A program made the position numbers and the translations under genes. Under the pieces are notes generated by a model that was given only the letters and a program-made list of their open reading frames with translations, was not told where the DNA came from and did not search any database. Shown piece after piece: positions 500-44,130 of a stretch of 64,000 bases of DNA; the first letter of the stretch is position 1; each line of letters opens with the position of its first letter. Location: NCBI GenBank assembly GCA_043806635.1, contig JAZDGT010000002.1:41974-105973 (forward strand). The letters run 5' to 3'. Source of the stretch: Methanobacteriota archaeon. GTDB taxonomy: Archaea > Thermoplasmatota > E2 > DHVEG-1.

Positions 500-1792
500 T
501 TAAATTCCGTTTATCGTGAATTGAGTGAGCACTCCGGTCTTTGACTGTAGTTGCACGATGAAGGTGACTTGGTCGGTTTCAAATGTGATGATACAGGTGT
601 CTCCATGGTATAGTGGTTTCCCAACGACTGATGCTTCCGTAAAAAGATTGTAGAGTTCGGCTTGGTCGTATTTCAACACATTCTCAACTGATTTCCGTGC
701 TGCTGTAACGAGTGTATTCACTGCATAATCATGAAGCACACCAGAGCGTTTCAGGTTTGTTTGTACGAGTTTTATCTCAGAAGGAGTCAATGGTGAGGAC
801 GTCTCTGCAAAGGAGACTGTACACGTTTCGGTATTTGTGACAACGCCTTCAGGTGGGTCAGTGATCACCACATATTTATTCTTATACGTATCACCAATAA
901 TACTGATAGGTTGGAAATACGTGGTGAGGAACTGCTGAGTCGTCACATACGTGTTCCCACCCAAACCACCAGTCTTCGGATCATTCAACCAGAACCCATA
1001 CACCGTGATCACAGGGAAATCAGGGTAGTTCTGCCATGCGCTCCGGTTCGTGTGAATCCCTCGTACCGTCATCCAGTTGTTATAATTCCCATAGGTGGGG
1101 ATCGCTATTGGTACATTTGTGGGATGCCCGGGTTTCGGCCAAAACGTCGGGTACCCAAAATCACCGTTATGATCATAATCAACCCCGTACGTGAAATCAA
1201 GCCAGATACAGATATCCCGTAACACAACGGTTGCACTCGTGTTCGAAGCAGGCGTGAAGAAATACCCATACAGATCAATAGGCAAGGGTTTGAATTGATT
1301 TAAACCAGCACACATCTCATCAGTGGTGAGCGTAAGTCCACCCTGCGTGTTAAACCAGGTAAACAATTGTTGTTGATCCGCGTAGTGCATCGGTGGCCCG
1401 CTCGGGTTCAACGTACTATTCCACCACAAGTAGTTGAGCATCATCTGCGCTATTGCCGCCCCTGTATCCATCGTCGCCGTGTAGAATGGGAACTGCTTCA
1501 AATCACGGTAATGGACATTCAAAATCAGATTCTGGTTGATACTTTTCGCACTGATTTCTCCCGCGGTTACGACATGGTCAGTGACGTTGACTGATTCATC
1601 GTTGTCTCGTGCGGTGAAACGAAGTGTTTCGCTTGCGTTCACATCCCGGCCTGCATATATGACAAGGGAGTAATGATTATTGTTGGTACTTGCCTCCCAT
1701 TGTTCCCCGGTGTTCAGATTCTTTATTTCAACAGACACGGAGTTCACCGGACTCATATCATGGTAATAACAGTATCCCTCAATAGTGACTCG
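500..1792 (-). other. Shared C-terminal module, copy 1 (last 430 aa of the 1425-aa protein, plus stop).
   Basis: Begins RVTIEGYCYYHDMSPVN and contains HYRDLKQFPFY, DTGAAIAQMMLNYLWWN, GHPTNVPIAIP, NNWMTVRGIHTNR, YGFWLNDP and KYVVITDPP. Ends KTGVLTQFTINGI. Confidence 0.85.
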
Positions 1793-4777
1793 GTTGGCGC
1801 CAATCAGCCATTCAAGGACTCGGTTCATGACTTCGTTTCGGCTCGTCTGTGTATTAATCGCTTCAAAACCAAACGCAAAATACACGACTTTGTATCCGGC
1901 AGTATCTGTTTTCACTGCTGCTTTGTATGCTGATGACTGATACGTGAAGACCACGGTCCCTGGTGAAATCGCTTGAATTCCATCAGGATAATTTTGATTG
2001 TTTGCTCCATCACCACCGGAGATTCCCAGGGTTAATCCGTCACCGATAGGGTCACCAACGGTTCCTAATAACGTGTAAATATTAGTATCATCAACTTGAT
2101 ACGTCGCATGTAAATAGTTCGTATAGAATGGTGTCGTCCCGATATCGTATCCTATCTCTTGGCTGGTGAGGAAGAACCGACCACCATTGGTTAAAAAGTT
2201 TTGGAGGTTCGCCTGATCCGTCGAGTCAAGGGTGTCTGACCAGTCATCTCCACAGAACCAGATTACTGCGTCATAGGTTGCCATTATCGTTGATGAAGGG
2301 CTTCCTTGTGAGCTTCGATCCCATCGATCATAAAGGTAGTTACATGCCATAAGTGCATTTATATAATATGTCTCGTAAGATTCTCCGTAGTCATCATCAA
2401 CTAGCAACACGTACCCGTTTGCGATAAACACAGAAACGTTCTTACTCAGCTCATTATTCCCAAGATACGGTTCTTGACCAGCGATGGATGCAGCAATGGA
2501 GACCGGGTATGTCCCAGGAATGGTTGGTACCCAGTTGAAATTCACATTCGTACTCCCACCACTACTCAAAAATACTTGCTGTGTGGAGAGAACAACCCCG
2601 TTTTCTTTGAATGAAACCGTGATTAATTCATTTGTTGTCCCCGGGTTTGCTACGGTACCGACGACTATTGTCAGACGACCAACCGCGGCATAATCATTCA
2701 CCGTGATACTCGTCACCGCAACATCAGGACCAGCTACCACAAGCGTGCTCATCTCATTATCATAGTAGACATCCTCGATTACTCCAGGGATTGAAACGTT
2801 TATCGTTAAAAGGTAGACCCCAATCTCCAGGGGCGTCCATTCGAAATTCACCTGAGTAAACGATTGACTCGCACTAAATGGTATAGTAAACGTGTCGATT
2901 TCTTCATCATCGACAAGGAATTTCACCAAAACATTATATTCATCGTTTTGCCCGTTATTTGCGATAGTTGCCTCAACAGGCACCAGCTGACCAGGAAGAA
3001 CATGACTAGGGACATCAATCGATGTAACTGCAACGTTATGCTCAGGTAAAAACCGTGGTTTGATAGACAATGACGGATCACCTAATAAATTGTAACATTC
3101 CATGTAATACGTGCTCAACCCGCCACCACTATAATGTTGCCAGGTGTCATATTTTGCTTTATCAGTCATACCCGCTAAAAACCAGAGGCCTTCAACCCAC
3201 CACGCATGAAACATGGCTTTCTCCAAGATATCATCCTCATCCCAATACGTTGAGGCGGAGCTTCCCCAGAACGCGAGACCCCCTTTGTCGGGGACACGCA
3301 GCCAGGTTTCCCCAAAACATTCACTGATATCAAACGGGTTAGTGCTACAAGCATGGCTGCACACAAACGGGTACATATGGGCGTTCGTGAGATCATATCG
3401 GACATTATTCTGATCAAACGGTGGTCCATCAGCCCACCCCCCTGAATACCCATGACCTGAATAAACCGAGATCACACGACCATCGTTATGGGCATTAATC
3501 ACCTGCTGAGTCGTCGCACTATAGGTGTGACAATAGAGTTTATCACTGACATACCCCTCAGGATCAAGATACGTGCTAATCACATAATTATGGGTTCCTT
3601 CGGAAACCTGCCAATTATCCTCTGATGCCATAAACACTGCTTTCCCAAGCCACTCTGTTGAAGGAAACGTTCCTTGTTCGTACTCCAATGTTTTTCCTAC
3701 GATGATATTCATCTCCGCTTCAGTTGCTGCGGGAAAACGACCGATGAAGATATCTGGGAAAATATCACCTTGACTGATTGTGACGTAATAGAGATCCGTC
3801 GCAGTCCCACTTGAAGATCCGGTGTAGGTAGGAATCTGAGGGACGTCACCGGCTAGGAGAACGAACGAGGGAGGTACCGGCCATTCCTGATACGCTTGAT
3901 CAATATAGGTATGGATGTTTTCTTTTGTGGGACCGCCGGGGATTTGTGAGGTTTTGGTTACCGTGACCTCATATCCTATAGAATCTTTCCAATTCGCAAA
4001 GGGAAGAATCGCTGAGTAGAGCACATCAGGTACGATGATTAAAAAACCGGTTTGATCCTTCCCACCAATTGCATATCCTTGATTGAATTGACCATAATTA
4101 TCAAAAAAAGATTGATACAGAAGATTAAAATCAGATGAATAATATCGTGCTTTATTCGTATATGTTTTTACCAGGTCACTACCTGGTAGACTAATCTGAA
4201 TATCACAGGATTTCATCACATGTAATTCCCCGGAAACAGGGTTATATTGGACTGGGGAGATCTCAATAAGTATGAATCGACTCCCTCGTATTTCTCCCTC
4301 TTCGGTTATCCGTGCAGGTGTTTCTGGGAAAAACAGGTCTTGATGATAGTAATTTTGATTAATCGTAAAAGGTGTATTCTTGTTTCCGTCCAAGGTTTTT
4401 GGTATTGATGGTTGCACAGGAAGTATTCGGTTTGAGAGACCTATTTGTTGAAGCGATGTGGTTCTCCATTCCACCGATGAAAGTGTGAGCGAAGGAGTTG
4501 ATTCGTATGGTATTTCAAGTATTTTTGTAATAACCGGGAGTTTCGCCTCGCCGACGATGGTTGTATACCCATAGTTTGGAAGGTCGAGTGTTGCGAATAT
4601 GCCTTGTGTGGTTTGGATATTTCCGTAAGTGATACTTGGGATGTCTATATGGAGATTTATTGTTTGGTTATTTTCGTCTAGAGTGTTTCGGCTTCCTATT
4701 GATGGAACAATGCTCAATAAAACGAATAGACACACTATTCCATACACTATCTCTTTTTGTAGTATTTTCTCTCGCAT
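500..4777 (-). CDS. Giant secreted protein (1425 aa). Order: signal anchor, propeptide-like region, C25 (gingipain/clostripain-fold) cysteine peptidase domain, two CARDB-like Ig domains, an unassigned alpha/beta region, then the shared C-terminal module.
   Basis: N-terminal hydrophobic helix IVYGIVCLFVLLSIVPSIGS. His motif VYSGHGYSGGW and Cys motif FVCSHACSTNPF with C25-like spacing. Two repeats of the type DVAVTSI...G....V...ANNG/ANPG (CARDB-like). C-terminal 430 aa homologous to the ends of the next three genes. Confidence 0.8.
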   Translation of the reverse strand: MREKILQKEIVYGIVCLFVLLSIVPSIGSRNTLDENNQTINLHIDIPSITYGNIQTTQGIFATLDLPNYGYTTIVGEAKLPVITKILEIPYESTPSLTLSSVEWRTTSLQQIGLSNRILPVQPSIPKTLDGNKNTPFTINQNYYHQDLFFPETPARITEEGEIRGSRFILIEISPVQYNPVSGELHVMKSCDIQISLPGSDLVKTYTNKARYYSSDFNLLYQSFFDNYGQFNQGYAIGGKDQTGFLIIVPDVLYSAILPFANWKDSIGYEVTVTKTSQIPGGPTKENIHTYIDQAYQEWPVPPSFVLLAGDVPQIPTYTGSSSGTATDLYYVTISQGDIFPDIFIGRFPAATEAEMNIIVGKTLEYEQGTFPSTEWLGKAVFMASEDNWQVSEGTHNYVISTYLDPEGYVSDKLYCHTYSATTQQVINAHNDGRVISVYSGHGYSGGWADGPPFDQNNVRYDLTNAHMYPFVCSHACSTNPFDISECFGETWLRVPDKGGLAFWGSSASTYWDEDDILEKAMFHAWWVEGLWFLAGMTDKAKYDTWQHYSGGGLSTYYMECYNLLGDPSLSIKPRFLPEHNVAVTSIDVPSHVLPGQLVPVEATIANNGQNDEYNVLVKFLVDDEEIDTFTIPFSASQSFTQVNFEWTPLEIGVYLLTINVSIPGVIEDVYYDNEMSTLVVAGPDVAVTSITVNDYAAVGRLTIVVGTVANPGTTNELITVSFKENGVVLSTQQVFLSSGGSTNVNFNWVPTIPGTYPVSIAASIAGQEPYLGNNELSKNVSVFIANGYVLLVDDDYGESYETYYINALMACNYLYDRWDRSSQGSPSSTIMATYDAVIWFCGDDWSDTLDSTDQANLQNFLTNGGRFFLTSQEIGYDIGTTPFYTNYLHATYQVDDTNIYTLLGTVGDPIGDGLTLGISGGDGANNQNYPDGIQAISPGTVVFTYQSSAYKAAVKTDTAGYKVVYFAFGFEAINTQTSRNEVMNRVLEWLIGANRVTIEGYCYYHDMSPVNSVSVEIKNLNTGEQWEASTNNNHYSLVIYAGRDVNASETLRFTARDNDESVNVTDHVVTAGEISAKSINQNLILNVHYRDLKQFPFYTATMDTGAAIAQMMLNYLWWNSTLNPSGPPMHYADQQQLFTWFNTQGGLTLTTDEMCAGLNQFKPLPIDLYGYFFTPASNTSATVVLRDICIWLDFTYGVDYDHNGDFGYPTFWPKPGHPTNVPIAIPTYGNYNNWMTVRGIHTNRSAWQNYPDFPVITVYGFWLNDPKTGGLGGNTYVTTQQFLTTYFQPISIIGDTYKNKYVVITDPPEGVVTNTETCTVSFAETSSPLTPSEIKLVQTNLKRSGVLHDYAVNTLVTAARKSVENVLKYDQAELYNLFTEASVVGKPLYHGDTCIITFETDQVTFIVQLQSKTGVLTQFTINGI

Positions 4778-4989: not shown

Positions 4990-6240
4990 TTATTTCAGGT
5001 GTACTGAGAATTGTTGTCCTGCACCATCAACGCCAAGCTTCACTGTGATATCCATGTTGGTGTTACCAACGGTGATGATATAGCCGTTTCCTGTGCGCAT
5101 TGGTTTTCCAACCGTCCTAAGACCAGAGATGAGTGAACCATAGGTGAGGTCGTTACTCAGGACACTGTTCACAAAATCAATGGCTTGCTGTCCTAGAACG
5201 AAAGATCCAACGTTCGTTTTCAAAGTCTTGATCTCAGTTAGGGTGAATCCGCTCTGTGTTCCTACTTTTAAGCTGATGCTATTCGTGTTAACTGCGGGTG
5301 CATCGCGTGGCGGATCAGTGATCACCACAAACTTGTTATTATAGTAATCGCCGGGGACGTTTAATTTCTGGAAATATGTACTATTAAAGTATTGATACGT
5401 AACATAGACATTATTCCCGACGCCACCGGATACAGGGTCATTCACCCAGAACCCATAAATCGTTACCGGACCATTAATGAGCTCGTGATCACCAGGTACA
5501 TTAGTGTCCCACATGCTCCGGTTCGTGTGAATACCACGGATCACCATCCAATGATCATACGATCCACCAGTGGGGACCGCGATCGGGACATGATACGGAT
5601 GACCCTCTTTTGGTACATCAACAAGTCGGTGTTCGTTCGACCCACTAATATTATAATCAAGCCAAATCACCGCGCTCTTCAACGCATCCACTGCCAGATC
5701 ATGCCCAGACGGAGCGAAGAAATAACCGTAAATCCACCCGTGACCATGGTCATCGATTTCCGCGTTCAAACCACCAGAAAGTTCACTGACGTTCATCTGG
5801 TTCCCACCCGCATACGTATTGTATAATGTTTGTTCATTGTACACACTCTGCGGTTCTGGGAACAGGGTGTCGTTCCACATACAGTAATCAAGCATCTGCT
5901 TCATCACCATCGCACCACTATTTACTTGTGAGAGGTAGAATGGGAACTGTTTCAGATCGCGATAATGAACTTTAAGAGTCAGATCAAGTTGAACATATCC
6001 TGCAGCGATGTCTGACGTGGTTATTAATCGATTCGTGACATTGACTGAGTTATCATTATCTCGAGCGATAATGCGGAGGGTGTCTCCCGCATGTATCTCA
6101 TCACCTGGTACCAAGAACTGGGTATAATAATTGTTATTCGTGTCTGCTTGCCATTGCCCTCCCGTATTAAGATTACTGATGTCAACAGTGATGATATTCG
6201 CAGGACTCATATCGGGGTAGGTACAATATCCTCTAACCTC
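4990..6240 (-). other. Shared C-terminal module, copy 2 (last 416 aa).
   Basis: EVRGYCTYPDMSPANIITV, HYRDLKQFPFYLSQVNSGAMVMKQMLDYCMWN, GHPYHVPIAVP, DHWMVIRGIHTNR, YGFWVNDP, KFVVITDPP. Confidence 0.85.
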
Positions 6241-9200
6241 GAACAAACTCATTTCGCCAATCATGAAACTCATAATATCAGTGCTTACAATGTTGTAGCT
6301 TGTATCACCGAACGTTATTTTCCATCCAACTCGGGTTCCTTCAGGTATTCCGGGGTTCTGCCAGGTGAAGTTCGCCCAGGCCCATACACCTGGTTCTGTG
6401 TTCAGATTTAATGGTGAACCATATGCTGATATGCCTTCGGTTTCTTCTCCGATTATTGCGAACGATGAGGGCTGAGACATCATGATGTATTCTGTTCGAG
6501 TCCATGCATCACTTCGAATCACATTTGCTATACGAATTTCATCGATCTTTCCGTTCATCCAATATGCATTGTTATCCATGTTGGTTCCGATGTTGAGACC
6601 GATTGTTTCAGGGTTTATGGTACCGGTGAAATAGATCCCGGCTTCGGTTAATCCATTCACCATAACTTCGAGAAGATCAGTCGTAGGATTCAGTCTCGTA
6701 GATGTGTAATACCATTGTGGGTTAGATGTGCTGATGTGGGTATCACTATAACACACAGGGATATCTGTCGAAGTATGAGTCCGAGCTTTAAAGCTCTCAT
6801 TAGTCCAAACATGTAAGGAGATACTGTAGTCTCCGTCTCCTTCGAAAAGATACCGTCGTTGTCCGTTGTTGCCATCAACATATACCCAGGCACTAGCAGT
6901 ATATGCTGCATCTGCTGGTATTCGGAATCCTGATGTTTGTACATAATCATTGGATCCATCGAAATCTACGCATTTTCCAATCTTGCCCTGCTGATTAAAG
7001 AGAGGGCCGCCTCCGGAGCTTGTGATATCCCAGTGATTCGCAGTGCTATCATCAAGTTCTGTATAGCTTGCTCCGCTCATATGTTGTACCATAATGAACC
7101 CATTACTCCAAGTTTCTTCAACGTATTCTTGATTATTGCAGGATGGGTTTCCATAATATAGATAAAGAATTGTATCTGTTGTTGAGCTAAGAAACGGGAT
7201 CTTCACCCAGGCAGTTAACTCGCCTGTTGGGCTGTAATAATATTCGATTTCATGAGCATATTGGGTTGAGTTATCCTGTGAAACGAAGACGAAGTCGTCC
7301 CCATCAGGTTGCGCATGGTTAGTGAAATCCGATGAGGTGCAGGTGATTACCACAGGAAAATCTGTGAAATCAGCTTGGACTTTGGTGTGATCAATCGTTA
7401 TCCTTTTTGAGTATTCCCAGTTGAAATTCCACCAGTTTAATGTAGCGTAATCAACCCATTCACCAGTTTCATTTGTGGAGAGGTACGCAAAATCAAGTCC
7501 TATGTTGTCCCGGCTTTGAGCAGAAAGCGTAACACTTCCTCCAGGGGGGATTGCGGATGAGGACTGTCCTTGATTGCGTATCTCAGGGTCGAGAGTATCG
7601 ATGATTGTTACGATTTTTTCAGCGGTATGACCCCAGAGATTCAGGTTATCTTTTGCGTGTATGATATAATATAATAGTGTTTTATCTGCTGCAGCGGTGA
7701 TAGTCCGCTGGTAATATCCACCGGTGAGCATCATACTCACATTCGTGTGAACGCCACCTTCATACCAATAGTCGACGTACACAGCTGCGATACCGTCATC
7801 GTCATAGACAGAAGCGTTGAATGTGAAGCTTGATCCCGTGGATGCAATAAGGCTTGTGTAATCATAGATGATCGGGTTTCGGAGAACATAGAAACTCATA
7901 ATATTTGTTCGATTCCAGTTACCTGAGGTGTCATTGTAGTAGATGCGCCATCCGACTCGTCGTCCTTGGGGAACTGCCCAGGTGTGCCAGCTGAAGTTTG
8001 ACCAGACCCATTGATCTTGAATACCACCATAACTTATTGGTGATCCATACATTCCTGATGTAATGTTCTGCCAGACTCCAGTCTCATTGGTGGCAAGGAA
8101 TGCTTTATTCAATGAGATACCGTCTTTTCCTTGGCTAGTCAGGAGGATGGGTTCTCCTCGTTGGATTGTTGTACGGTTCTGCCCTTGATTCTGCCATTGG
8201 GGTTTGAAATAATCGATGAATCCAAACTGAACGGTGACGTACCCTGGAGTGTTTTTTGGTGTATCCGGGGATTCTGGGGATGTTCTCGTTGGGCTCCCGG
8301 GGGTATAGATGGTTTCATAATATTCTACTTTAAACGAGGTGATCGTTCCATCCTGCGCGGCATCTCCTATCTCTAGATAGAACGAGTCTCCACCGCTAAT
8401 CCATTCGTTAAAGAATTCTGAGATATCGAGACACATGAATGAGGGATACGTATGCATTGAACCTGAGTATCCATTCCACCAGGGTTGTCTCGTCTCAAGA
8501 GGGGCTCCATGTGGACCAATCCCGAGGGTTACAGAAGCGTCACGGTTCGGTCGAGGGTTTAAGCTCCATCGCCCAAGAATTGTTGGGTGTGTCCCAGGAG
8601 TATAAAGGGCTGTCACATAATTCATTGGTTGAGTGTTCCAGCTTCCTTGTAACGCAGCGTACGTCATCCAGTAATAGCCTGTACCTGTGGGTCCCCAGTA
8701 TCCCCAGGAGTTCGCGACTTTAAATGCACCGGTTTCACCTGTTTCCGCATCGACTTTCGTATCATCATATCCAACGACCGTGTTCGCATGATTAATACTA
8801 TAGCGCATCGCGTTTAAACCTAAGACATTGTCACTTCCGAAATACCCATAACTATCTGCATCAAGCGCAAACGTGATAGGGTATCCTGCATCAAGTGTTG
8901 CTTTTAATACGCTAAGACTTTTTGTAACCTGATAGATCTGATTCACTCGGTACGGGGGGGCGTCTCTCCATGCATTTTCGTTTCCCCAACCTACAGGGTC
9001 TCCATCGTTATACGGCATTGTGCTCAGTCGAGCAGTGCCGACTCGTTGAGAAACCCGCATGTTCTCCCAGGTGACAGACCCGCTATCATATCCATAGTTG
9101 CATTTGTTATACGTCCATGCTGGGCTTAATAATTGATTGGAATTCCCTGAATGCGCCTGAGTCCAATCATAGTTTTTCGATATGACATACCCAGTAGCAT

Positions 9201-9672
9201 AGTAAGTGGCTGCCCATGCGGCACACGACCCTTGTCCGCCCTGGTTACCTATTATTGGAAAACATGAATCAGCGGAGAGGTCGACGACAGACCGCAGTGG
9301 ATTTGGTGGAGGAAGCTCATCAACGATAATAAGAGACCCAACCATCTCGATATAGTCTGCTTCACTCGGTGGTGCGTACCCTGTTCCATGACCATCGTAG
9401 ATGATGTTATAGTTTTTTGCTGGGTCGTAAACCCCAGCCTGTTGTTTCAATGCTTCGATGTCTTCTTTTGTCGCAAGATGGGTGACTATACCGGTAAGAC
9501 TGTCATTTGTTTTTTGTTCGGCATAAGGTGTAGTTTCTTGTTTCATTGGTTGAGCAAAGGCTCCTAAGATGCAGGGTGCAATGCTTGTTCCAATGAACAG
9601 TAGGATGATTCCTAGAACTAGAAAATATTTTAACACATTGTTTTGCATGGTTTCGTATTCCTCCCTATTCAT
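4990..9672 (-). CDS. Giant secreted protein (1560 aa). Order: signal anchor, papain-like C1 cysteine peptidase, several Ig/beta-sandwich domains, DUF2341-like plus LamG (concanavalin-like) domains, then the shared C-terminal module.
   Basis: C1 triad motifs NQGGQGSCAAWA (Cys150), SINHANTVVGYDD (His295) and VANSWGYWG (Asn321). DUF2341-like WEYSKRITIDHTKVQADFTDFPVVI...ILYLYYGN. LamG-like VDFDGSNDYVQTS...ASAWVYVDG. C-terminal 416 aa homologous to the other modules. Confidence 0.85.
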   Translation of the reverse strand: MNREEYETMQNNVLKYFLVLGIILLFIGTSIAPCILGAFAQPMKQETTPYAEQKTNDSLTGIVTHLATKEDIEALKQQAGVYDPAKNYNIIYDGHGTGYAPPSEADYIEMVGSLIIVDELPPPNPLRSVVDLSADSCFPIIGNQGGQGSCAAWAATYYATGYVISKNYDWTQAHSGNSNQLLSPAWTYNKCNYGYDSGSVTWENMRVSQRVGTARLSTMPYNDGDPVGWGNENAWRDAPPYRVNQIYQVTKSLSVLKATLDAGYPITFALDADSYGYFGSDNVLGLNAMRYSINHANTVVGYDDTKVDAETGETGAFKVANSWGYWGPTGTGYYWMTYAALQGSWNTQPMNYVTALYTPGTHPTILGRWSLNPRPNRDASVTLGIGPHGAPLETRQPWWNGYSGSMHTYPSFMCLDISEFFNEWISGGDSFYLEIGDAAQDGTITSFKVEYYETIYTPGSPTRTSPESPDTPKNTPGYVTVQFGFIDYFKPQWQNQGQNRTTIQRGEPILLTSQGKDGISLNKAFLATNETGVWQNITSGMYGSPISYGGIQDQWVWSNFSWHTWAVPQGRRVGWRIYYNDTSGNWNRTNIMSFYVLRNPIIYDYTSLIASTGSSFTFNASVYDDDGIAAVYVDYWYEGGVHTNVSMMLTGGYYQRTITAAADKTLLYYIIHAKDNLNLWGHTAEKIVTIIDTLDPEIRNQGQSSSAIPPGGSVTLSAQSRDNIGLDFAYLSTNETGEWVDYATLNWWNFNWEYSKRITIDHTKVQADFTDFPVVITCTSSDFTNHAQPDGDDFVFVSQDNSTQYAHEIEYYYSPTGELTAWVKIPFLSSTTDTILYLYYGNPSCNNQEYVEETWSNGFIMVQHMSGASYTELDDSTANHWDITSSGGGPLFNQQGKIGKCVDFDGSNDYVQTSGFRIPADAAYTASAWVYVDGNNGQRRYLFEGDGDYSISLHVWTNESFKARTHTSTDIPVCYSDTHISTSNPQWYYTSTRLNPTTDLLEVMVNGLTEAGIYFTGTINPETIGLNIGTNMDNNAYWMNGKIDEIRIANVIRSDAWTRTEYIMMSQPSSFAIIGEETEGISAYGSPLNLNTEPGVWAWANFTWQNPGIPEGTRVGWKITFGDTSYNIVSTDIMSFMIGEMSLFEVRGYCTYPDMSPANIITVDISNLNTGGQWQADTNNNYYTQFLVPGDEIHAGDTLRIIARDNDNSVNVTNRLITTSDIAAGYVQLDLTLKVHYRDLKQFPFYLSQVNSGAMVMKQMLDYCMWNDTLFPEPQSVYNEQTLYNTYAGGNQMNVSELSGGLNAEIDDHGHGWIYGYFFAPSGHDLAVDALKSAVIWLDYNISGSNEHRLVDVPKEGHPYHVPIAVPTGGSYDHWMVIRGIHTNRSMWDTNVPGDHELINGPVTIYGFWVNDPVSGGVGNNVYVTYQYFNSTYFQKLNVPGDYYNNKFVVITDPPRDAPAVNTNSISLKVGTQSGFTLTEIKTLKTNVGSFVLGQQAIDFVNSVLSNDLTYGSLISGLRTVGKPMRTGNGYIITVGNTNMDITVKLGVDGAGQQFSVHLK

Positions 9673-9829: not shown

Positions 9830-11110
9830 TTATTGATTTTTTTCACTAGTTTTTTCTGAGCTTTTAATAACGATTTGGGCAAGAGCACCAGTTTTTGTAT
9901 AGAGTTGCACTTCAAAGACCAATCCAGCGGTGTCAAAGAAGACCGTACAGGTATCATCTTTATTATAGACTGGTTTTCGTATGACTCGTGTGTTTTCAAA
10001 GCAAGGACTATACACAGAATCATATTGGAGTACGGTTTTCGCGGCTTTTGCTGCGGCATGGATGACAAGGTTATCAATTGGTTTTGTAGTAGTTGTTTTA
10101 CTTCTTTCAGCAACAAGTTTCATTTCAGTTTTGGTGAATCCCGTCGCAGGTTCAGCGATCGTAACAGTGACTTGATCAGTATACACTAGTATATCTCGTG
10201 AGGGGTCAGTTATAGCGAGGCGTTTCCCGTTGTAGAGATCCCCGGGTACGGTGAGGTTGAGGAAGTAGGTGCTGAGGAATCGTTGCGTGGTGACGTACGT
10301 GTTTGCTCCTAACCCTCCTGCTTTTGGATCATTAAGCCAGAACCCGTACACATTAAGTTGCGTTGGTGGCAGCCACGCGTTCCGATCAGTATGGATGCCT
10401 CGGATCGTCATCCAGTTGTTGTAATTTCCACCTGTAGGGATGGCGATGGGGACATGGTTCGGATGACCGGGTTTGGGAACATCGACATCTCGGATGTTGT
10501 TGTAGTAGTTGACGGGGTAGTCGAGCCAGATGCAGATCTGTTTCAGGACATCGTTCGCGTTGGTGCTAGCATACGGTGAGAAAAAGTACCCGTAAATCCA
10601 CCCATGTCCATAGTCGTCAATTTCGTTATTCAATCCTGAGGTGAGTTCACTTCCATTAATAATGTTATCAGTTCCTTTATAGGTGTTGTAGAGGGTTTGT
10701 TCGTTGTAGACATCGGGTGGCCCTTCAGGGTTCATTGTCTGATTCCACATGAGGTAGTCCATCATCATTTTCATCGTCATCGCACCTGTATCTATTTGAG
10801 AGAGGTAAAAGGGGAAGTCTTTCAAGTCCCTATAGTGGATATCTAAAATAAGATCACGAATGATGGTTCCATTATTGATATCATCAGTGGTGACTTGATA
10901 ATCGTACACCTTGACTGATTCATGAGTATCTCGTCCGATAAATCGAAGCATATCACCAACATTAAAATCACTCCCAGGATACAATTGAAGGGAGTATATG
11001 TTATCAAACGCGTGTGCACACCATTTCATACCTGTGTTAAGATTACTGATTTCTACTGTGATGTTGAATACTGGGCTTTGATTCTGATAATATACTGATC
11101 CAGTGAGTAT
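9830..11110 (-). other. Shared C-terminal module, copy 3 (last 426 aa).
   Basis: ILTGSVYYQNQSPVFNITV, HYRDLKDFPFYLSQIDTGAMTMKMMMDYLMWN, GHPNHVPIAIP, NNWMTIRGIHTDR, YGFWLNDP, KRLAITDPS. Confidence 0.85.
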
Positions 11111-13756
11111 GTATCTCCACCCAGTCGGTTTCATAAACGGGTACGTATCCTGGTTACTCTGGGGTGGAATAAGGTATGGTATGTCACCGATGCCATCAGG
11201 TCCAGGTATATCCTGATTTGGACCATGATTATTATCTACTCCAGAGTAATCGTCCCAATAGTTACCACCTGAAGGGTACCCATTATCCCAAGTATTGGTG
11301 GTATCATATTCATTCACCTGTTGCATATTATTCATGAAATTATTATGATAAAAATAATTATCTTCGCAAGTCATGGTGGTCAGCCCATAGCTACTGCTAT
11401 TTGAAATCGTGTTATCCAAAAGAAGGTTGTAGCTTGAATACCCAAAATGTAATCCAATTTCTTGATGATCAATGAGATTACCAATAATCTGATTCTCACT
11501 TGAAAGCCACAGTTCAATACCATCAGTGTTTTCTTGGATACTATTACCGGTTATGACGGTATTATCGCATACATACAATGAGATACCAATACCAGAGGTA
11601 AGCGGAAAACGGATTGTATTATTGGTTATCGTGTTTTGAGTACTATACCCAAGGGAAACACCAGTTTCTAGGTACTGATCGATCGTGTTGTTTGAAAACA
11701 AATTATTGAATGATTGATCAGCAAGGATTCCTATTAGGTTTTGTGACAGCATATTATAATTTATTATGTTCTGTGATGACCCTGTTTGCAGGACAATGCC
11801 AGTACCTTCGTTTTCATAAATGTCGTTTTCAACTAACGTGTTTCGATGCGCATCATAGAGGAACACCCCGTTCCCAGGATTGAGGATGATTTGATTGTTA
11901 CTGATGATGTTGTCTGATGAGGACCGTACCATAATCGCATCATGAACATTATCAGTGAATATGTTGTCTATAATAGTGTTGTTGTTTGCGTTGGAGAGTA
12001 TCGTGCCTTCCCCAGGATTATTCTGTATCGTGTTGTTTGAAATAGAATTATTATTGGAGTGGATATCAAGGCCTGCGTCTTCCCAACCAACTCCACAATT
12101 CTGCAGAGTAAAACCACTGATATTTACCTTGTTAGCTAGTACGAGGAGGGTATCGTCTCGTGCGTGGCCGTCTATGATGGTTGTTTCTCTTTGTTCTCCA
12201 AGTAGATTAATGGTTTTGTTTACGATCACGTTTTCAGTATACATCCCATTGTAGACGTGTACGGTTCCTCGTTCTATGACGGCATCAACACCATCCTGTA
12301 TCGTATTGAAATGATCAAACTGCCAGCCTGGTGTAGACGGATCATAATTATCATCGACATACACAACCGGTGGTTCAATCAGATAATGAAAATTCCCGCT
12401 ATGATGGATGTCATGACGGAACATTGGCCACCCTGGTTCGGTGCCGTCTCCTGCGGACAGCAGGTACGCCCGTCCATGGTTATTGGTTGGTGGTGAGGAG
12501 ATCCCGTATCCTCCGATAATAAAAATATCGAGTTTTCCGTCGTTGTTGAAATCAGCGATGATGGGTGCATGGTCGATTTCAAAGGTTCTGCCGTAATGTG
12601 CTTGGATGTTGTATGTCCATACGACACCGCCATTATCACCTCGGAGTACACGAAGGATTCCATCATCTGCACCGAACGCGACATCGAGAATATGATTTCC
12701 ATCAACATCAGCAATAGCTATCCCACGGAAGTTTCCTCCTCCCGCAGAATAACTCCATTGTTGACCCCCTGTGTGAGACAGGACTCCTATTTTTGTGTAG
12801 GCTGCATAGACGATTTCCAGATGGTTATCATTATCAAGATCAGCAATACTGGTTGGTGCACCAACGTAATAGGTGGTCGGATAATTCCAGAGTGGTCCAC
12901 CGTTTTCAGCATTAAACACGTACACATGATTATCATAGCAGCCGATTGCTAACTCTGGTTTTCCATCTTCATCAATATCAGCAAATGAGCACCCATGGTA
13001 CATGTAATCATTCGGTTGATCCGTAAACCATTTGGTTGCACCCGTTGACCCATTCAATGCGTATACACGACAAGTTCCTGCCCATTGGGAGACCACCACA
13101 TCAAGTTGACCATCAAGATCAACATCAAGGATGTTTGGCTCAGATTGAATATAGCTGTTTGTGCCAAGGTTAATCCTCCATTGAACGGATCCGTTCTCCC
13201 CATTCAAACAATACACATACCCATAGAATGCTCCAAAGATGATTTCTGGTTTCCCGTCGTTATCAACATCAGCAACCGCAGGAGGAGAATCAATAGAGTT
13301 AGGAGATGTAGAGCGCGACCATTCAACTGCTCCCGTAGAGCCGTTAAAACAATACACTCGACATGGTGAAGACGCAGGAACCACGACTTCTAAATCACCA
13401 TCTAAATCTACATCAGCAATCACTGGTGATGCATCATTACACCCACCAGTATCATACTTCCACAGCAACGTCCCATTTTCTGCGTTTAATGCATAAATAT
13501 TTTCATCGTTGAAATACGTACCAAACACAATCTCTAGATTCCCATCATGGTCAATGTCCGCGGTTGCTGCAGAACCAAACGATGGCGCAGAGAGATTATA
13601 ATACCAGAGAACCTGAGGAACCAAAGGTTCTCTCTGCATGTCATTTATTTTATCTATACTTGCTGATTGTGAATATAGTAATCCATTTGCTAATGGCGGT
13701 ATAGTTCCAATCAACAACAGAACAACAATAAAACTAAACAATTTTTTTTCTATCAT
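9830..13756 (-). CDS. Giant secreted protein (1308 aa). Order: signal peptide, FG-GAP/PQQ-like Ca-loop beta-propeller, right-handed parallel beta-helix (NosD/PbH1-like repeats), then the shared C-terminal module.
   Basis: Eight loops of the type ADIDHDGNLEIV, ADVDLDGDLEVV, ADVDNDGKPEII and ADFNNDGKLDIF, alternating with Y.LNG..G...W strands. A long series of roughly 22-aa repeats (N.I.NN.I..N..GI.L) typical of beta-helices. C-terminal 426 aa homologous to the other modules. Confidence 0.85.
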   Translation of the reverse strand: MIEKKLFSFIVVLLLIGTIPPLANGLLYSQSASIDKINDMQREPLVPQVLWYYNLSAPSFGSAATADIDHDGNLEIVFGTYFNDENIYALNAENGTLLWKYDTGGCNDASPVIADVDLDGDLEVVVPASSPCRVYCFNGSTGAVEWSRSTSPNSIDSPPAVADVDNDGKPEIIFGAFYGYVYCLNGENGSVQWRINLGTNSYIQSEPNILDVDLDGQLDVVVSQWAGTCRVYALNGSTGATKWFTDQPNDYMYHGCSFADIDEDGKPELAIGCYDNHVYVFNAENGGPLWNYPTTYYVGAPTSIADLDNDNHLEIVYAAYTKIGVLSHTGGQQWSYSAGGGNFRGIAIADVDGNHILDVAFGADDGILRVLRGDNGGVVWTYNIQAHYGRTFEIDHAPIIADFNNDGKLDIFIIGGYGISSPPTNNHGRAYLLSAGDGTEPGWPMFRHDIHHSGNFHYLIEPPVVYVDDNYDPSTPGWQFDHFNTIQDGVDAVIERGTVHVYNGMYTENVIVNKTINLLGEQRETTIIDGHARDDTLLVLANKVNISGFTLQNCGVGWEDAGLDIHSNNNSISNNTIQNNPGEGTILSNANNNTIIDNIFTDNVHDAIMVRSSSDNIISNNQIILNPGNGVFLYDAHRNTLVENDIYENEGTGIVLQTGSSQNIINYNMLSQNLIGILADQSFNNLFSNNTIDQYLETGVSLGYSTQNTITNNTIRFPLTSGIGISLYVCDNTVITGNSIQENTDGIELWLSSENQIIGNLIDHQEIGLHFGYSSYNLLLDNTISNSSSYGLTTMTCEDNYFYHNNFMNNMQQVNEYDTTNTWDNGYPSGGNYWDDYSGVDNNHGPNQDIPGPDGIGDIPYLIPPQSNQDTYPFMKPTGWRYILTGSVYYQNQSPVFNITVEISNLNTGMKWCAHAFDNIYSLQLYPGSDFNVGDMLRFIGRDTHESVKVYDYQVTTDDINNGTIIRDLILDIHYRDLKDFPFYLSQIDTGAMTMKMMMDYLMWNQTMNPEGPPDVYNEQTLYNTYKGTDNIINGSELTSGLNNEIDDYGHGWIYGYFFSPYASTNANDVLKQICIWLDYPVNYYNNIRDVDVPKPGHPNHVPIAIPTGGNYNNWMTIRGIHTDRNAWLPPTQLNVYGFWLNDPKAGGLGANTYVTTQRFLSTYFLNLTVPGDLYNGKRLAITDPSRDILVYTDQVTVTIAEPATGFTKTEMKLVAERSKTTTTKPIDNLVIHAAAKAAKTVLQYDSVYSPCFENTRVIRKPVYNKDDTCTVFFDTAGLVFEVQLYTKTGALAQIVIKSSEKTSEKNQ

Positions 13757-13861: not shown

Positions 13862-15145
13862 TTACTGCACGGATACCTGTTGGGTCGATATCTGTATTTC
13901 TAAAAGGGATCCATCGAGTGTATTGATGAGTATTTTAAAGGTGGTACCTTGGTGAGCAAAGTTGACTAAGCAGGTGGCTTTCTCATATCGTGGTCTTGCG
14001 GTTGGTTGTGCTGACGTAAAAAGATCCGCATACACAGGATCGTTTTTAAGGACATCACTTGCTGCCTCATACGCAGCGCGAATAACAATGTTATCAGTGA
14101 TGATATTGGTTAGTTTTCCTTTCACTAGTCGATTGACAAGTCGTGCCTCGTTTGCTGAGAACTTAACAGGTGATTCAACGAAATTTACAGCTGTATCAGC
14201 AACAGGAGAAGCAATATCTCGTGGCGGATCGGTTATCGCTAGGTATGTCCCATTGTAGGTATCATTCAGAATAGTGATGGGTTTGTAGTAGACGTCGAGG
14301 AATCGTTGTACAGTCACATAGGTATTACTGCCGACTCCGTTTGGTTTGGGGTCGTTGAGCCAGAACCCGTACACATTGAGTTGTTCAGGGGGTAGCCACG
14401 CGTTCTGATCCGTATGTATCCCACGGATTACCGCCCAGTTGTTATAGGCTCCATATAAGGGTATCGCGACGGGCACGTGGTTCGGGTGACCGAGTTTAGG
14501 GACATCGACATCACGAAGGTAGTTGTAGTAGTTAACAGGGTAATCCAACCAGTAACAGATATGTTTTAACGCAGGGGTGGGACTCGCGTTGTGATAGGGT
14601 GCGAAGAAGTATCCGTATTGCCATGGTGGTGTTTGGTTGCGATCGTCAATGAGTCTGTTGAGTCCGCTGCAGAGTTCGTCTCCATCGAGGTATGTTCCTC
14701 CATGAATGTTAAGTGAAATAAATAATTCGTGTTGATCAGGGTACGTCAGGGGTGGCTCTGAATATTGGGTGTTGTTCCACATGAGGTAGTTCAGCATCAT
14801 CTGTGCAACGGTCGCACCGGTATCAACTTGGGATACATAGAATGGGAAACTCTTGAGATCACGGTAATGTACAGTGAGAATAGGATCAAGGGTGATACTT
14901 CCCGTGCTGATATCAGAACTGGTAACGATGTGATCAGTGATGTTCACGGACTCATTTTCGTCTCGAGCGATAAATCGGAGGATCTCTCCTTGGTGGACAT
15001 CAACACTATTAATGATAGCTGTAGAATAGTAATTAGTCTCTGTCTCTGCCTGCCAGGTCTCTGTCGTATTCAAATTACGGATCTCCACGGTGAGGTTATT
15101 CACCGGTTGCATACCCGGGTAGTAACAATGTCCTTGAATGGTTAA
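13862..15145 (-). other. Shared C-terminal module, copy 4 (last 427 aa).
   Basis: LTIQGHCYYPGMQPVNNLTV, HYRDLKSFPFYVSQVDTGATVAQMMLNYLMWN, GHPNHVPVAIP, NNWAVIRGIHTDQ, YGFWLNDP, TYLAITDPP. Confidence 0.85.
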
Positions 15146-18100
15146 TAAGGGGAGTGATGTGGTGATTTTTACTTCATCGATAACACCGAGGAACGGGAGG
15201 TAACCGCCCCAGCCGCTGAGTCGTTTACCGATACCTAGGTTTTGGGTTGTCGCCGCTGGTGCATACGACCACGGTGTTTGTCCTTGTGGTTGTCCATCGA
15301 CATAGATTTTTATGGCACTTCCATCCCAGGTTCCGATAACGTGATGGCATATGTTATCTCGAAGATCAGTCGTTCCCATGACGTCTTGGTTCCCATGAGA
15401 ACCGCTGTAGAGGGAGAAACGGAGTCTCCCGTTGGTGAGATACAGGGTGAATCCTCTGGAATCAGAACCGCTAATATATTGATACTTATCCGCAATCGTG
15501 AGGTAGTTATCTGATCCGGTGGCTTTGATGTATGCTTCGACGGTGAATGGGCTGGTGATTGCTAAACTAGTTGAATGTGGGACGGTGACACAGTCGCCGT
15601 CGTACCATTGTCCGCCACCGTGGAAGTAGAGTGCGTTTCCTTGGCAGCCGGTGGTCCAGGTTGCTCCTGTGATGGTGCCATCGTTATGATTTGGTGAGGA
15701 ATCATGAGCAATCGTTCCTGATCCTTCTTCGAACCGCCAATACCCTGCGACGGCTCCAGTAGTAATGGTTTCTGTGGTGAAATGCCAAATCGAGCTTGCG
15801 GTAGAATACCCGTAGGAATCATAAGCCATTATCATCCAGTAGTAGGTGGTGTTATCATGAAGCGTACCAGGGTTATAGGTTGTTGTGGTTTGTCCTTGTG
15901 AAACAATAGTGAAAAGAGTAGGATCGTATCCCCAATACACATCATAGGTGAGGGTATCCTCAGGATCGGGGTCACTACAGCTCCAACTCAGGTGAGAATA
16001 AATCGAGACGTTCAGAGCATCATTACTCGGTGTGGGTGATTGAGGAGTGGTAGGTGCGAGGTTGGATTTCGTGGTAAACGACCAGATTGGCCCAAGTGTT
16101 GAGAGACCAGCGTTATCCCAGGAGATAATCTGCCAATAATATGTGGTATCGTACGCGAGATCGGGAAGATTATAAGCAGTTGAGGATTGATGATCGGAGA
16201 TTAATGATGGGTTTGCTGTCTCTCCAAAGTAAACATCATAGGCAACGGTTTCACCAGCGTCAGGGTCGCCACCCGTCCAGCTGAGATCACTGGTGAGGAT
16301 GACCGTTGTTGCCTCATGTGCTGGTGATGGATTAGAGGGTTGATAGGGTGGACTATATACGTAGTGTACGGGGAGGGCATAGGTTGCACCGATATCGTCG
16401 CTGATGACGACATCTTGGTATCCATCGCGATTGTTATCTGTAATTGAGACGCCTCGTGGGTTTCCTATTCCCATGAATTCTTTGAGTAGCTCATGATTCT
16501 GATTGAAGATGGTGACTCCACCAGTTTGGACGATCGCAAGATCATTTTGACCATTTGTGTCGTAATCACCGATAGAAATCCCCTGTGGATTGGCGAGTCC
16601 ATAAAATTCATCGATGAGTTGTCCGTTGGTTCGGTAGATATAGACGACCCCCGTCTCAGAGGATATTGCAACATCGTTCAGCAGGTCGTTGTTGTAGTCG
16701 CCGATAGAGACGTCACGTGGGTTTGGAACGTTGTATTCTCGTAGGATTTGCCCATAGCGATTATAGACGCGGACCCCTGCCGGATTAATAAGTGCGATAT
16801 CCTGGGATCCATCGTTGCCGAAATCTCCGACTGCGGAACCGAGCGGCTCAACAAGTTTCGTCAGCATCGTCTCGTATCCAACGTCACAATAGTCCAGTAT
16901 ACTCTTATACGGTAAGGGAGCCGCTAAACAGTTCTCGTAGGTATCACCGATGAACGGGTTGTAGGTTTGTGTGGCATTGGTTCCATTCCGATGATCAATG
17001 AAACCGAAGAAAATAATCACGGGTCCATCCTCGGTTGCGACTGCAAGATCGTTGTATCCATCGCGGCTGAAATCCTTAATCGTTACACCCTCAGGACCAT
17101 CCAACCCGGTGAACCGGGTGATAATATCACCGGTGTTAGAATAAACAGTGACACTTCCTCGTGTGTATTCAGCAACAACGAGATCGTTATCGCCATCATT
17201 GTTGAAATCACCGATAGAGACACCCAAAGGACCACTCAGGTTCGTGAGTTGCAAAATGATCCCTCGGGATTGATCATGGACGGTTACCAGTCCACGTTCA
17301 TATTCTGAGATAACGACATCATTGAATTCATCATTATCAAGAGTACCAATGGCTAAACCACGGGCTCCTGCCAACCCGGTGTATTCAGATATGAGCCCAC
17401 CAAAACGATCGTAGATACGAACACTCGCATTGAAATCTTCAATGAGTCCAACATCTAAGTGAGTATCATCGTCGTAGTCATCAATCGAAACACCCATGAC
17501 TTGACGTAACCCGAACAGGCTGTCTTCGATGTCCCCAAGGCCATTTTGCACAACCATACTACCAATATTCGTATTGAGGAGTTCTTTGAACCTGGAATTA
17601 TCCAGTTTTTGACTTAAAATAGTTCGTCCCTCATTGTTACCGAAAAATAATCCTATATCATTCTGTATAAAATGGGATATTCCTCCGGGGTTCTCTTCAC
17701 CACCACCAGGGGAACCTGGAATAAGGTTCGCGTAAATAGGTGTTCCCCAGTTTAAAGGACCGCCAGAGAATTGCCGTGCGAGTCCGCAGTAGTTCCCACC
17801 GATCACCCGGAACGCAGCAGGTGGATTTTGGTACGCCTGTGGAAGGAACAAGCTGATACTTGTTGCTGGTCCACTGTATTCTTGACCACCAGGTTTTGCA
17901 GGATCTGATGGAAAAATCCATTGTCCACCGACATATTCACCTTTTTGGAGAATATAAAACGTTGCCCCAGGTACCGATGTCCAGCTTATCGTGAATTGCT
18001 GCTGAGACAAAATATTCGATCCATTAATCGGTGCCGTGATTATGGGTGTCCCTACAGGTGGACTCATGCCAAGCAGGGTACAATCTGGGACAAGGACTTG

Positions 18101-21708: not shown

Positions 21709-25421
<3,713 letters not shown>

Positions 25422-43438: not shown

Positions 43439-44130
43439 AGATTGGTGGACTACAAAAAACATCACTCTTAGACTATCCGGATAATGTGAGTGCAATAGTC
43501 TGGACCATAGGGTGTAACTTCCGGTGCCCATTCTGCTACAACAAAGCCATAGCATTGGGCACGACGCTCACTTTTTTTCCTGAGGAAGAAATCATCCAGT
43601 TCCTTGAGAAACGACAAGGACTCCTCGACGGCGTCGTCATCACCGGCGGAGAGCCGCTCCTGCAAGAAGGCATCATCGAATTTGTACGACGAATAAAACA
43701 AATCGGATATCGTGTCAAGATTGATACGAATGGCTCACAACCAGAAAAACTACTCGAGCTGATTAAACAACATCTTGTCGATTATATTGCGATGGATATC
43801 AAAGCACCACGAACAAAATACGACGAGCTTGCTGGCATAAAAGTAGATCTTGCTAAGATAGCCCAATCCATTGAACTGATAAAAAACGCGGGAATCGATT
43901 ACGAGTTCCGCACCACGGTTGTTCCTGATTTACTCAAACAAGAAGATATTGTTGAGATCGCGCAATGGATCCAGGGAGCAAAACGATACTTTCTCCAGCA
44001 GTTCCGGATTAACCCACCGTTAGTCTCCTCAAAACTAGAAAAAATTCAACCCTACACAAAAGACCAACTTCAAAAAATGTGCGACGCCGTAAAATCCTTT
44101 GTTCAAACCTGCTATATACGAGGCGTATAG
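43435..44130 (+). CDS. nrdG: Anaerobic RNR activating enzyme NrdG (radical SAM).
   Basis: GCNFRCPFCYN cluster motif and VVITGGEPLLQ. ATGA overlap with nrdD. Confidence 0.88.
   Translation: MKIGGLQKTSLLDYPDNVSAIVWTIGCNFRCPFCYNKAIALGTTLTFFPEEEIIQFLEKRQGLLDGVVITGGEPLLQEGIIEFVRRIKQIGYRVKIDTNGSQPEKLLELIKQHLVDYIAMDIKAPRTKYDELAGIKVDLAKIAQSIELIKNAGIDYEFRTTVVPDLLKQEDIVEIAQWIQGAKRYFLQQFRINPPLVSSKLEKIQPYTKDQLQKMCDAVKSFVQTCYIRGV

Follow-up and report, generated by a model that had tools for sequence, protein, structure and literature searches.

What is the function of a C-terminal module that is shared by four neighbouring giant secreted proteins, and is the core of this module still a peptidase? These questions are raised by a stretch of 64,000 nucleotides (hereafter the window) from a Methanobacteriota archaeon (assembly GCA_043806635.1, contig JAZDGT010000002.1, positions 41,974 to 105,973 of the forward strand). 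The first 21.4 kb of the window consist of four consecutive minus-strand open reading frames (ORFs) in tandem, whose products all start with a basic-then-hydrophobic, signal-peptide-like segment and end in a common module of ~430 residues. The upstream (passenger) parts of the four proteins are mutually unrelated according to sequence comparison and have only the signal-peptide region in common. The modules of copies 1 and 2 are 41% identical over ~445 aligned residues (E = 2e-105), and a six-frame profile scan detected exactly four copies in the window. Each copy is composed, in this order, of a presumed beta-sandwich segment, a core of ~220 residues, and a helical/beta tail. The answer proposed here is that the core is a papain-fold domain of the C39 type that has diverged strongly. 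It would descend from relatives in which a Cys is part of the motif ...(E/Q)M-C-G-P-A-V-A-Q-M..., would no longer function as a Cys/His peptidase, and may well have been turned to binding.

The core of copy 1 extends from 848 to 1513 (module residues 1-222) and the cores of copies 2, 3, and 4 occupy 5305..5967, 10196..10837, and 14219..14869, all on the minus strand. An original prediction, which was made from the letters of the window alone, had described this core as a papain-fold, C39-like peptidase domain, and the four 20-residue segments quoted in it occur exactly in the translations of the four ORFs, with their FY starting at window positions 1486, 5940, 10810, and 14842 in copies 1-4, respectively. 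The motif (N/H)W..(V/I)RGIHT, which was said to follow about 120 residues later, starts 136 residues after FY and thus 117 residues past the end of the 20-mer (RGIHT at 1063-1049, 5538-5524, 10402-10388, and 14425-14411). It is followed, as stated, by YGFW(L/V)NDP, which ends at 977, 5434, 10325, and 14348. By these landmarks, the core coordinates proposed for all four copies were right.

The fold of the core was modelled with AlphaFold2 (AF2) using the copy 1 module (337 residues) with a 53-sequence alignment, and the core alone (240 residues) with 37 sequences. The module model had a predicted local distance difference test score (pLDDT) of 93.4 and a predicted template modelling score (pTM) of 0.92, and the core-only model (pLDDT 90.9, pTM 0.90) showed the same secondary structure. 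In its first part the core contains a strand (residues 2-4), a long helix (17-29) whose first residue is Thr17, helices 47-54, 64-74, and 79-82, a strand (87-91), and a helix (94-106). The second part is formed by strands 136-139, 147-155, 169-178, and 185-191, a helix (192-199), and a strand (214-218). When the core-only model was compared to the Protein Data Bank (PDB) with Foldseek, ranks 1-28 were without exception papain-fold (clan CA) cysteine peptidases, headed by the C39 toxin domains StbD-CT (8SSK/8SSM; E = 6.6e-3 to 1.5e-2, probability 0.96-0.99, target-normalised TM score 0.59) and 9L5U (E = 7e-3, target TM 0.56-0.61), and followed by the ZUFSP deubiquitinase (E = 0.022) and then by cathepsins S and L, staphopain, cruzain, and falcipains. 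Entry 9L5U was taken to be Cpe1 according to its PDB title, as the Cpe1 paper gives no code. According to the StbD preprint, 8SSK is a C39 peptidase whose nearest likeness is to those domains of ABC exporters that process quorum peptides, and Cpe1 is a C39 peptidase related to it; the Cpe1 paper names ComA and LahT as the closest structural relatives of Cpe1. Since both domains have been described as C39- or ComA-like, the best structural matches of the core are of the C39 type. The query-normalised TM scores of the core-only matches amounted to 0.34-0.41 (~0.38), and these low values may be due to ~80 residues of extra loops.

Judged by their order, and not by superposition, the predicted elements of the core appear to map one to one on the PEP domain of ComA: the N-terminal strand, the Cys helix, two helices, a strand, a helix, a strand ('VPIAIP'), the His strand, the Asp-Pro strand, a strand, a helix, and the last strand. 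Paired motifs of core and ComA are 'NWMTVRG' and 'HYYVVTG' in the His strand, 'YGFWLNDP' and 'SIHIADP' in the Asp-Pro strand, and 'QQFLTTYF' and 'ERFEEEW' in the helix. In this model the Asn or His ahead of Trp stands at the start of the penultimate long strand and NDP at the end of the strand after it, which would match the His and the Asp-Pro of ComA. Structure prediction and structural comparison thus pointed to a papain-like and not to an unrelated fold, in agreement with the original prediction. These models provide good but not decisive evidence, and we regard it as very likely that the core has a papain-like fold that is closest to C39.

At the sequence level the module is not recognised by the domain libraries. 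Pfam gave no match to the four modules even at E = 10, none to C39 (PF03412 / PF13529) in 53 family members at E = 1, and none when the upstream segments and tails were searched separately; the window tails lacked a PepSY match at E = 1. A search of the whole proteins with NCBIfam found nothing for the module, and the only match of the family profile to all PDB sequences was a cellulase carbohydrate-binding module hit by chance (E = 0.64). Furthermore, the family was compared by hhalign to a C39 alignment of 102 sequences (99 database sequences, ComA from two species, and the C39-like domain of HlyB) and to ComA alone. The sole local match to the alignment covered 15 columns and was not significant (P = 0.0048, probability 7%); it pairs module residues 14-28 with ComA residues 14-28 in the nucleophile helix and places Thr17 onto Cys17. 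A second hhalign match ('VVITDP' to 'IHIADP') was discarded as spurious, as the module strand concerned is the last of the sheet. In the source annotation, relatives are named 'hypothetical protein' or after their passenger domains only. The module family has no Pfam or NCBIfam entry and is unannotated, and the profile searches that might have assigned the region to another family (Pfam, NCBIfam, PDB-sequence profile) did not do so. Judged by its sequence, the family falls outside C39 and represents a hitherto unannotated version of the C39-like fold within a novel architecture.

StbD-CT and Cpe1, which matched the core model best in structure, are minimal papain-fold domains of ~140 residues which are likewise located at the C-terminus of large secreted proteins, carry their Cys at the start of a helix, and have an Asp-Pro after the His strand. 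In contrast to the window core, they possess an active Cys-His-Asp triad, have a partner immunity protein, and cut GyrB/ParE at Gly-Gly, whereas the window core has Thr or Ser, mostly Asn, and ~80 extra loop residues. Neither an immunity-like neighbour nor a match to these domains at the sequence level was found. The C39 double-glycine peptidase domains of ABC exporters (ComA 3K8U, PCAT1 6V9Z, LahT 6MPZ; PF03412/PF13529) show the same order of strands and helices, and an [H/N]-aromatic-hydrophobic strand followed by ...DP. The module sequence x-D-[C/T/S]-G-x-A-x-x-x-M-x-x-x-Y also resembles Q-M-D-C-G-V-A-S-L-A-M of ComA. However, the exporter domains are cytoplasmic N-terminal parts of transporters with catalytic Cys, His, and Asp and an oxyanion Gln, whereas the module is extracellular, lacks a fusion to an ABC exporter, and forms the C-terminus of multidomain proteins with Sec-type secretion.

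Diverged C39-like domains are also known from methanogens, where A0A126R2S0 and PeiR (8Z4H) are extracellular, have an altered third triad residue, and are missed by standard domain databases (PMC13642728). They share with the module the extracellular archaeal location and the divergence, but retain Gln-Cys-His and are fused to pseudomurein-binding domains, and neither appeared in the 50 highest-ranking structural matches to the core. A precedent for a C39 domain turned into a binding domain, and the best functional analogy for the module, can be found in HlyB. The C39-like domain of HlyB (CLD; 3ZUA) has a C39 fold without the catalytic Cys, in keeping with a check of its sequence, and binds a protein ligand instead of cutting it. 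The CLD differs from the window cores by keeping the His and by having a Tyr at the Cys position, and it is located on the cytoplasmic side of an ABC transporter; a sequence relationship between the CLD and the window family was not detectable.

The catalytic Cys of C39 is absent from the helix start in all four window copies. The original prediction had placed Thr or Ser at the nucleophile position, and the respective column indeed contains Thr in copies 1 (1463-1465), 3 (10787-10789), and 4 (14819-14821), encoded by ACA, ACA, and ACC, and Ser (AGT; 5917-5919) in copy 2. Likewise in line with that prediction, the canonical His position, whose equivalence was derived from the topology, holds Asn in copies 1 (Asn146; 1076-1078), 3 (10415-10417), and 4 (14438-14440), and His only in copy 2 (5551-5553). 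Asn177-Asp178-Pro179 is kept in all four copies (977-985, 5434-5442, 10325-10333, and 14348-14356), and copy 2 has a formal Ser-His-Asp set. The view that the catalytic residues are replaced is therefore correct for the Cys of all copies and for the His of three, but not for copy 2, which has a His there. Similarly, no Cys is conserved across all four copies together, as had been stated, but copies 1, 3, and 4 as well as ~70% of the relatives carry the Cys of an 'IC.W' motif (module residue 102). The Gln expected ahead of the nucleophile occurs in copies 2-4 at a distance of three residues from Thr/Ser (SQV/SQI) and is missing in copy 1, and the oxyanion Gln of C39 lies about six residues before the nucleophile. 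In the relatives this column is variable and contains insertions; an oxyanion Gln does not appear to be a conserved family column.

To place these substitutions in context, relatives of the module were collected. A word-indexed search yielded 49 matches and an exhaustive search 617 representative clusters (50% identity; E up to 1e-3), 277 of which were below 1e-30. The family thus comprises at least 617 clusters; the residue statistics are based on the 181 relatives at hand. Column 17 was present in 159 of these sequences and contained Ser (n = 64), Thr (n = 59), Cys (n = 28), Ala (n = 7), or Asn (n = 1). The next residue was Gly in 155 of them, with Ala or Pro after it. Among 175 distinct relatives, 40 had Cys-Gly-Pro/Ala at column 17, and the Cys-type motif reads FPMY.AE...(E/Q)MCGPAVAQM.LNYMWW. 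Column 146 most frequently contained Asn (n = 105), followed by His (n = 40), Arg (n = 10), Ser (n = 8), and others, and all 28 Cys-bearing members had Asn at this position. Trp147, Gly152, Gly173, and Trp175 are invariant, and Asn177, Asp178, and Pro179 are each conserved in more than 96% of the relatives (Asp in 175 of 181). Within the Cys group (40 distinct sequences) Asn146, Asn177, Asp178, Pro179, Gly183, Gly185, Asn187, and Tyr189 are kept in 39-40 members, with Asn146 in 39, whereas position 146 of the window-type group (S/T-G-A, 84 sequences) holds Asn (n = 37), His (n = 23), Ser (n = 6), Arg (n = 4), or others. No disulfide partner for Cys17 of the relatives was found, as there is no co-varying Cys column and the frequency of Cys102 does not differ between the classes.

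A second conserved cluster is formed by His130 (114 of 156 sequences), His133 (140 of 153), His154 (150 of 181), and Thr155 (164 of 181). In the window its GHPxH segment lies at 1115-1129 (GHPTN in copy 1, with Asn at position 133), 5590-5604, 10454-10468, and 14477-14491, and the His of RGIHT at 1052-1054 (His154), 5527-5529, 10391-10393, and 14414-14416; an ANME-type subfamily (anaerobic methanotrophic archaea) is devoid of the GHPxH segment. According to the predicted strand pairing this cluster should be situated at the end of the hairpin opposite to the canonical cleft, where it may have a structural role or represent a metal site or another binding site. His154 of RGIHT, or His130/His133 of GHPxHVP, were considered as the true catalytic His and judged unlikely because this end of the hairpin would be far from residues 146 and 178.

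A rough, midpoint-rooted neighbor-joining tree of the family contained a Ser-only group of the ANME type, a Cys-dominated group with several apparently independent changes to Thr, Ser, or Ala, and a window-type clade with Cys on its basal branches. Copy 2 belongs to a subclade of five members, all of which have Ser and His. On these grounds the ancestor of the family may be read as a Cys-bearing, C39-like domain that already lacked the canonical His, with the Thr/Ser state of the window being derived, and the His position as being under relaxed constraint in the window-type clade. Both readings support the view of the original prediction that the canonical Cys/His mechanism has been lost. The restriction of column 17 to Ser, Thr, and Cys fits either a retained nucleophile or the need for a small residue at a buried helix start.

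Regarding its distribution, a first genome scan, which used patterns from the four window copies only, confirmed no relative, whereas a second scan with family-wide patterns found 51 loci. The archaeal sources of these loci are Methanobacteriota, Thermoplasmatales, ANME-1, ANME-2, Promethearchaeota, and Micrarchaeota, and the bacterial sources Phycisphaerae, other Planctomycetota, Omnitrophota, Acidobacteria, Acanthopleuribacteraceae, and Desulfuromonadales. All are uncultured and represented by metagenome-assembled genomes, with several, often adjacent paralogs per genome. Cys-type members were found at many GTDB loci, in species-representative genomes of Phycisphaerae, other Planctomycetota, Methanobacteriota, ANME-1, Promethearchaeota, Thermoplasmatales, and Methanosarcinales. 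The spread over archaea and bacteria suggests inter-domain transfer of the family.

In all 181 relatives the module is the last or next-to-last element of the protein, with ~70 or ~130 residues, corresponding to one or two tail-like domains, following it in one Cys-type subfamily. A Pfam-based census of the passengers of 41 full-length representatives contained C25 peptidases (5-6), NosD/beta-helix proteins (5), InlB-B-repeat-like proteins (4), trypsin-like peptidases (2), and cohesins (2), single cases of S8, M14, M28, and lectin-like domains, and also propellers, PKD, He_PIG, Big_9, cadherin, filamin, and LamG domains. A C10 peptidase and an InhA-like MAM domain were detected by Pfam among fragments of relatives. 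In addition, two of the 41 representatives carry an Hcp domain of the type VI secretion system (best E = 6e-23), which is unexpected for a Sec-secreted surface protein.

Based on sequence, model, and analogy, the reading favoured here, with moderate confidence, is that of a pseudo-peptidase core used for binding within a docking or anchoring module. The nucleophilic Cys would have been replaced by Thr (copies 1, 3, and 4) or Ser (copy 2) while the Asp of Asp-Pro was kept, and the conserved cleft (Ser/Thr-Gly, Trp147, Asn177-Asp178-Pro179, and Gly-x-Gly-x-Asn-x-Tyr) would represent a putative binding site. The constant position of the module at the end of extracellular proteins that otherwise have nothing in common makes a docking or anchoring unit most likely, and because it is found on many unrelated passengers in archaea as well as bacteria, it must work on its own after Sec export. 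As such a self-contained unit it would link its passenger to a partner, either a peptide or a glycan, that belongs to the cell envelope or to a substrate. The C-terminal domain (CTD) of the type IX secretion system (T9SS) on gingipains is comparable by analogy only, as one C-terminal element on many unrelated secreted passengers, including C25 peptidases, with several paralogs per genome. It is, however, a beta-sandwich of ~80 residues that is recognised by a dedicated secretion system and cut off by PorU, whereas the module has ~430 residues with a papain-fold domain and occurs in both archaea and bacteria, so that no shared dedicated machinery is apparent. A T9SS CTD was not found at the extreme C-terminus of the window proteins; NCBIfam gave only a sub-threshold Bac_Flav_CTERM match (E = 0.023), which falls inside protein 4 (residues 1308-1331).

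Several observations weigh against this reading, some of which concern the fold itself. No Foldseek match reached E = 1e-3 and the E-values of the core are borderline; the whole 337-residue module retrieved no papain-fold structure among the top 50 (best E = 0.09), its list being headed by unrelated structures; and neither Pfam nor the PDB-sequence profile nor hhalign provided a significant profile link to C39. The proximity of residues 17, 146, and 178 was moreover deduced from topology and not from coordinates. Together with the low query-normalised TM scores and the failure of every profile method to tie the family to clan CA, these results would suit a fortuitous likeness, with the core being a new fold or a member of another superfamily. 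This is very improbable, however, considering that all 28 best structural matches belong to several families of one clan, with target TM scores of 0.56-0.61 and probabilities of 0.96-0.99 for those of ~140 residues, that Cys-Gly-Pro of the relatives is located exactly at the helix start, and that, as in C39, the strand following the 'His' strand terminates in Asp-Pro. The proposed function is confronted with the lack of any conserved neighbour gene within 3 kb across the 51 loci, where only antisense shadow ORFs and segments of passengers or paralogs recurred, and no binding partner was found for the module. If the module were instead an intramolecular chaperone or inhibitory pro-region, consisting of a pseudo-peptidase and a PepSY-like part, helping passengers to fold or keeping passenger enzymes latent, and removed after export, the peptidases among the passengers (C25, trypsin-like, S8, M14, and M28, about a quarter of the census, with C10 and C1 also seen) would be accounted for. 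The tail gives weak PepSY signals, and PepSY (PF03413) domains occur in protease propeptides. Nevertheless, non-peptidase domains (beta-helix, propeller, Ig-like, cadherin, cohesin, LamG) make up most of the passengers, the C25 peptidase of gene 1 has its own N-terminal propeptide, and the PepSY assignment is weak (Pfam E = 0.0015 in 2 of 53 relatives; the C-terminal domain of YpeB, 5BOI, at rank 4 with E = 0.13 in the whole-module Foldseek search), which makes a pro-region improbable.

Points of more weight concern the active site, where residual or altered catalysis is possible. Column 17 is Ser, Thr, or Cys in 151 of 159 relatives (~95%), a narrower choice of residues than a dead site would lead one to expect, Asn177-Asp178-Pro179 is nearly invariant, and copy 2 combines Ser, His, and Asp. 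The core might accordingly still be a non-canonical enzyme that employs Ser/Thr (Cys in relatives) as nucleophile with Asp178/Asn177, plus His146 in copy 2, and either cuts its own chain or transfers the passenger covalently to an envelope acceptor in a sortase-like, ester- or thioester-forming reaction. Such activity would suit the rarity of Ala and Asn at column 17 ahead of a near-invariant Gly. It would also fit in with the near lack of Asp and Asn in this column, both of them good helix N-caps, even though a single mutation converts Ser or Thr into Asn, and with the set of residues kept throughout the Cys group, the Ser, His, and Asp retained in the subclade of copy 2, and the auto-processing in cis of a related C39 toxin (StbD preprint). 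On the other hand, none of the 28 Cys-bearing representative clusters has a His at the canonical position, the Cys was apparently replaced several times by Thr, Ser, and Ala in the rough tree, which argues against thiol dependence, position 146 drifts freely in the window-type clade, and the set of Ser, Thr, Cys, and Ala would equally be expected for a small residue at a buried helix start. On balance, an enzymatic core appears rather unlikely. Its most far-reaching form, which is quite improbable, is an unrecognised extracellular papain-fold class with a Cys/Ser/Thr nucleophile, without the canonical His, and with an Asn and Asn-Asp-Pro in the cleft, mediating covalent, autonomous self-release of the passenger or its envelope attachment via an acyl (thio)ester. 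The module would then be a sortase-like, 'self-anchoring' C-terminal domain common to archaea and bacteria of the Planctomycetes-Verrucomicrobia-Chlamydiae (PVC) group, and the Thr/Ser copies of the window would be active oxy-ester variants and not dead enzymes.

A pseudo-peptidase used for docking, as preferred here, would be of wider relevance, since the family forms the C-terminus of many of the largest proteins that uncultured anaerobes (Methanobacteriota, Thermoplasmatales, ANME-1/-2, Promethearchaeota, Phycisphaerae, and Omnitrophota) secrete, and a C39-type core assigns these 'hypothetical' C-termini to a known kind of structure. As read from the sequence, a C-terminal membrane anchor or hydrophobic end is absent from all four window proteins, and it is a testable idea that the module holds extracellular peptidases and adhesin-like proteins at the cell surface. 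Because the family offers a natural series of replacements from Cys to Ser, Thr, and Ala in a papain-fold site that already lacked the His, it should be useful for studying how peptidases become binding modules or gain other chemistry.

The remaining parts of the module flank the core on both sides. The upstream segment of ~90 residues (GYCYY...NLNTG...LRFTARD...) is conserved among the four copies and is presumed to form a beta-sandwich; it lies at 1514..1777 in copy 1, 5968..6231 in copy 2, 10838..11101 in copy 3, and 14870..15133 in copy 4. The tail, which in the AF2 secondary structure of copy 1 comprises three helices and then a four-stranded sheet and is tentatively PepSY-like, occupies 503..847, 4993..5304, 9833..10195, and 13865..14218 in copies 1-4 (all on the minus strand). 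Right after the first helix of the core, at ~1412-1423 in copy 1, a W-N-x-T sequon is found in all four copies (WNST, WNDT, WNQT, and WNNT), and it is common in the relatives. This possibly represents a conserved N-glycosylation site on a secreted archaeal protein.

The four proteins are singletons, all encoded on one NCBI contig of 119,812 bp. Gene 1 (500..4777, minus; 1425 amino acids [aa]) encodes a signal peptide, a C25 propeptide, a gingipain-like C25 peptidase, CARDB repeats, and the module, with Pfam matches to Peptidase_C25 (E = 8e-65), Propeptide_C25, and CARDB. In gene 2 (4990..9672, minus; 1560 aa) the signal peptide is followed by a C1-type papain peptidase domain, DUF2341, LamG_3, and the module. 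The C1 domain (residues ~118-357; window 8602-9321, minus) appears genuine, its Cys being embedded in GSCAAW and its His in NHANTVVGYDD, and it also contains NSWG.WG; it matched the cysteine protease 3OIS in the PDB-sequence search (E = 1.9e-6) and was not reported by Pfam at E = 0.01. Protein 2 thus carries an intact papain-fold enzyme at one end and a degenerate papain-fold domain at the other. The product of gene 3 (9830..13756, minus; 1308 aa) contains a signal peptide, an FG-GAP/PQQ-like propeller, and a NosD-type beta-helix ahead of the module (Pfam, NCBIfam), and that of gene 4 (13862..21373, minus; 2503 aa) a signal peptide, a long Ig/FN3-like region, FG-GAP repeats, and LamG_3 (Pfam).

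Apart from these genes, the window mainly contains ordinary archaeal housekeeping genes, such as those for CTP-dependent riboflavin kinase, a NOG1-type GTPase, a TyrRS/TrpRS-class synthetase, adenylosuccinate lyase, NrdD, and enolase. A second protein with a C25 peptidase and a NosD beta-helix (54817-58431, minus; 1204 aa) does not have the shared module, and close to its gene a 727-aa protein with a transglutaminase-core domain is encoded (52169-54352, minus). Both genes adjoin stretches of low G + C content (0.32-0.33 at 48-50 kb and 52-54 kb versus ~0.43 elsewhere). The anaerobic ribonucleotide reductase NrdD (40301-43438, plus) is split by an intein with a LAGLIDADG-like region, as the Pfam matches Intein_splicing and LAGLIDADG_3 fall between the two NRDD halves, and the NrdD activase follows at 43435-44130. 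Finally, a bacterial-type NAD-dependent DNA ligase LigA with all of its domains (21709-23769, minus) is encoded in this otherwise archaeal context side by side with a PolX that has a PHP domain (23694-25421, minus), the two genes apparently overlapping by ~75 nucleotides.

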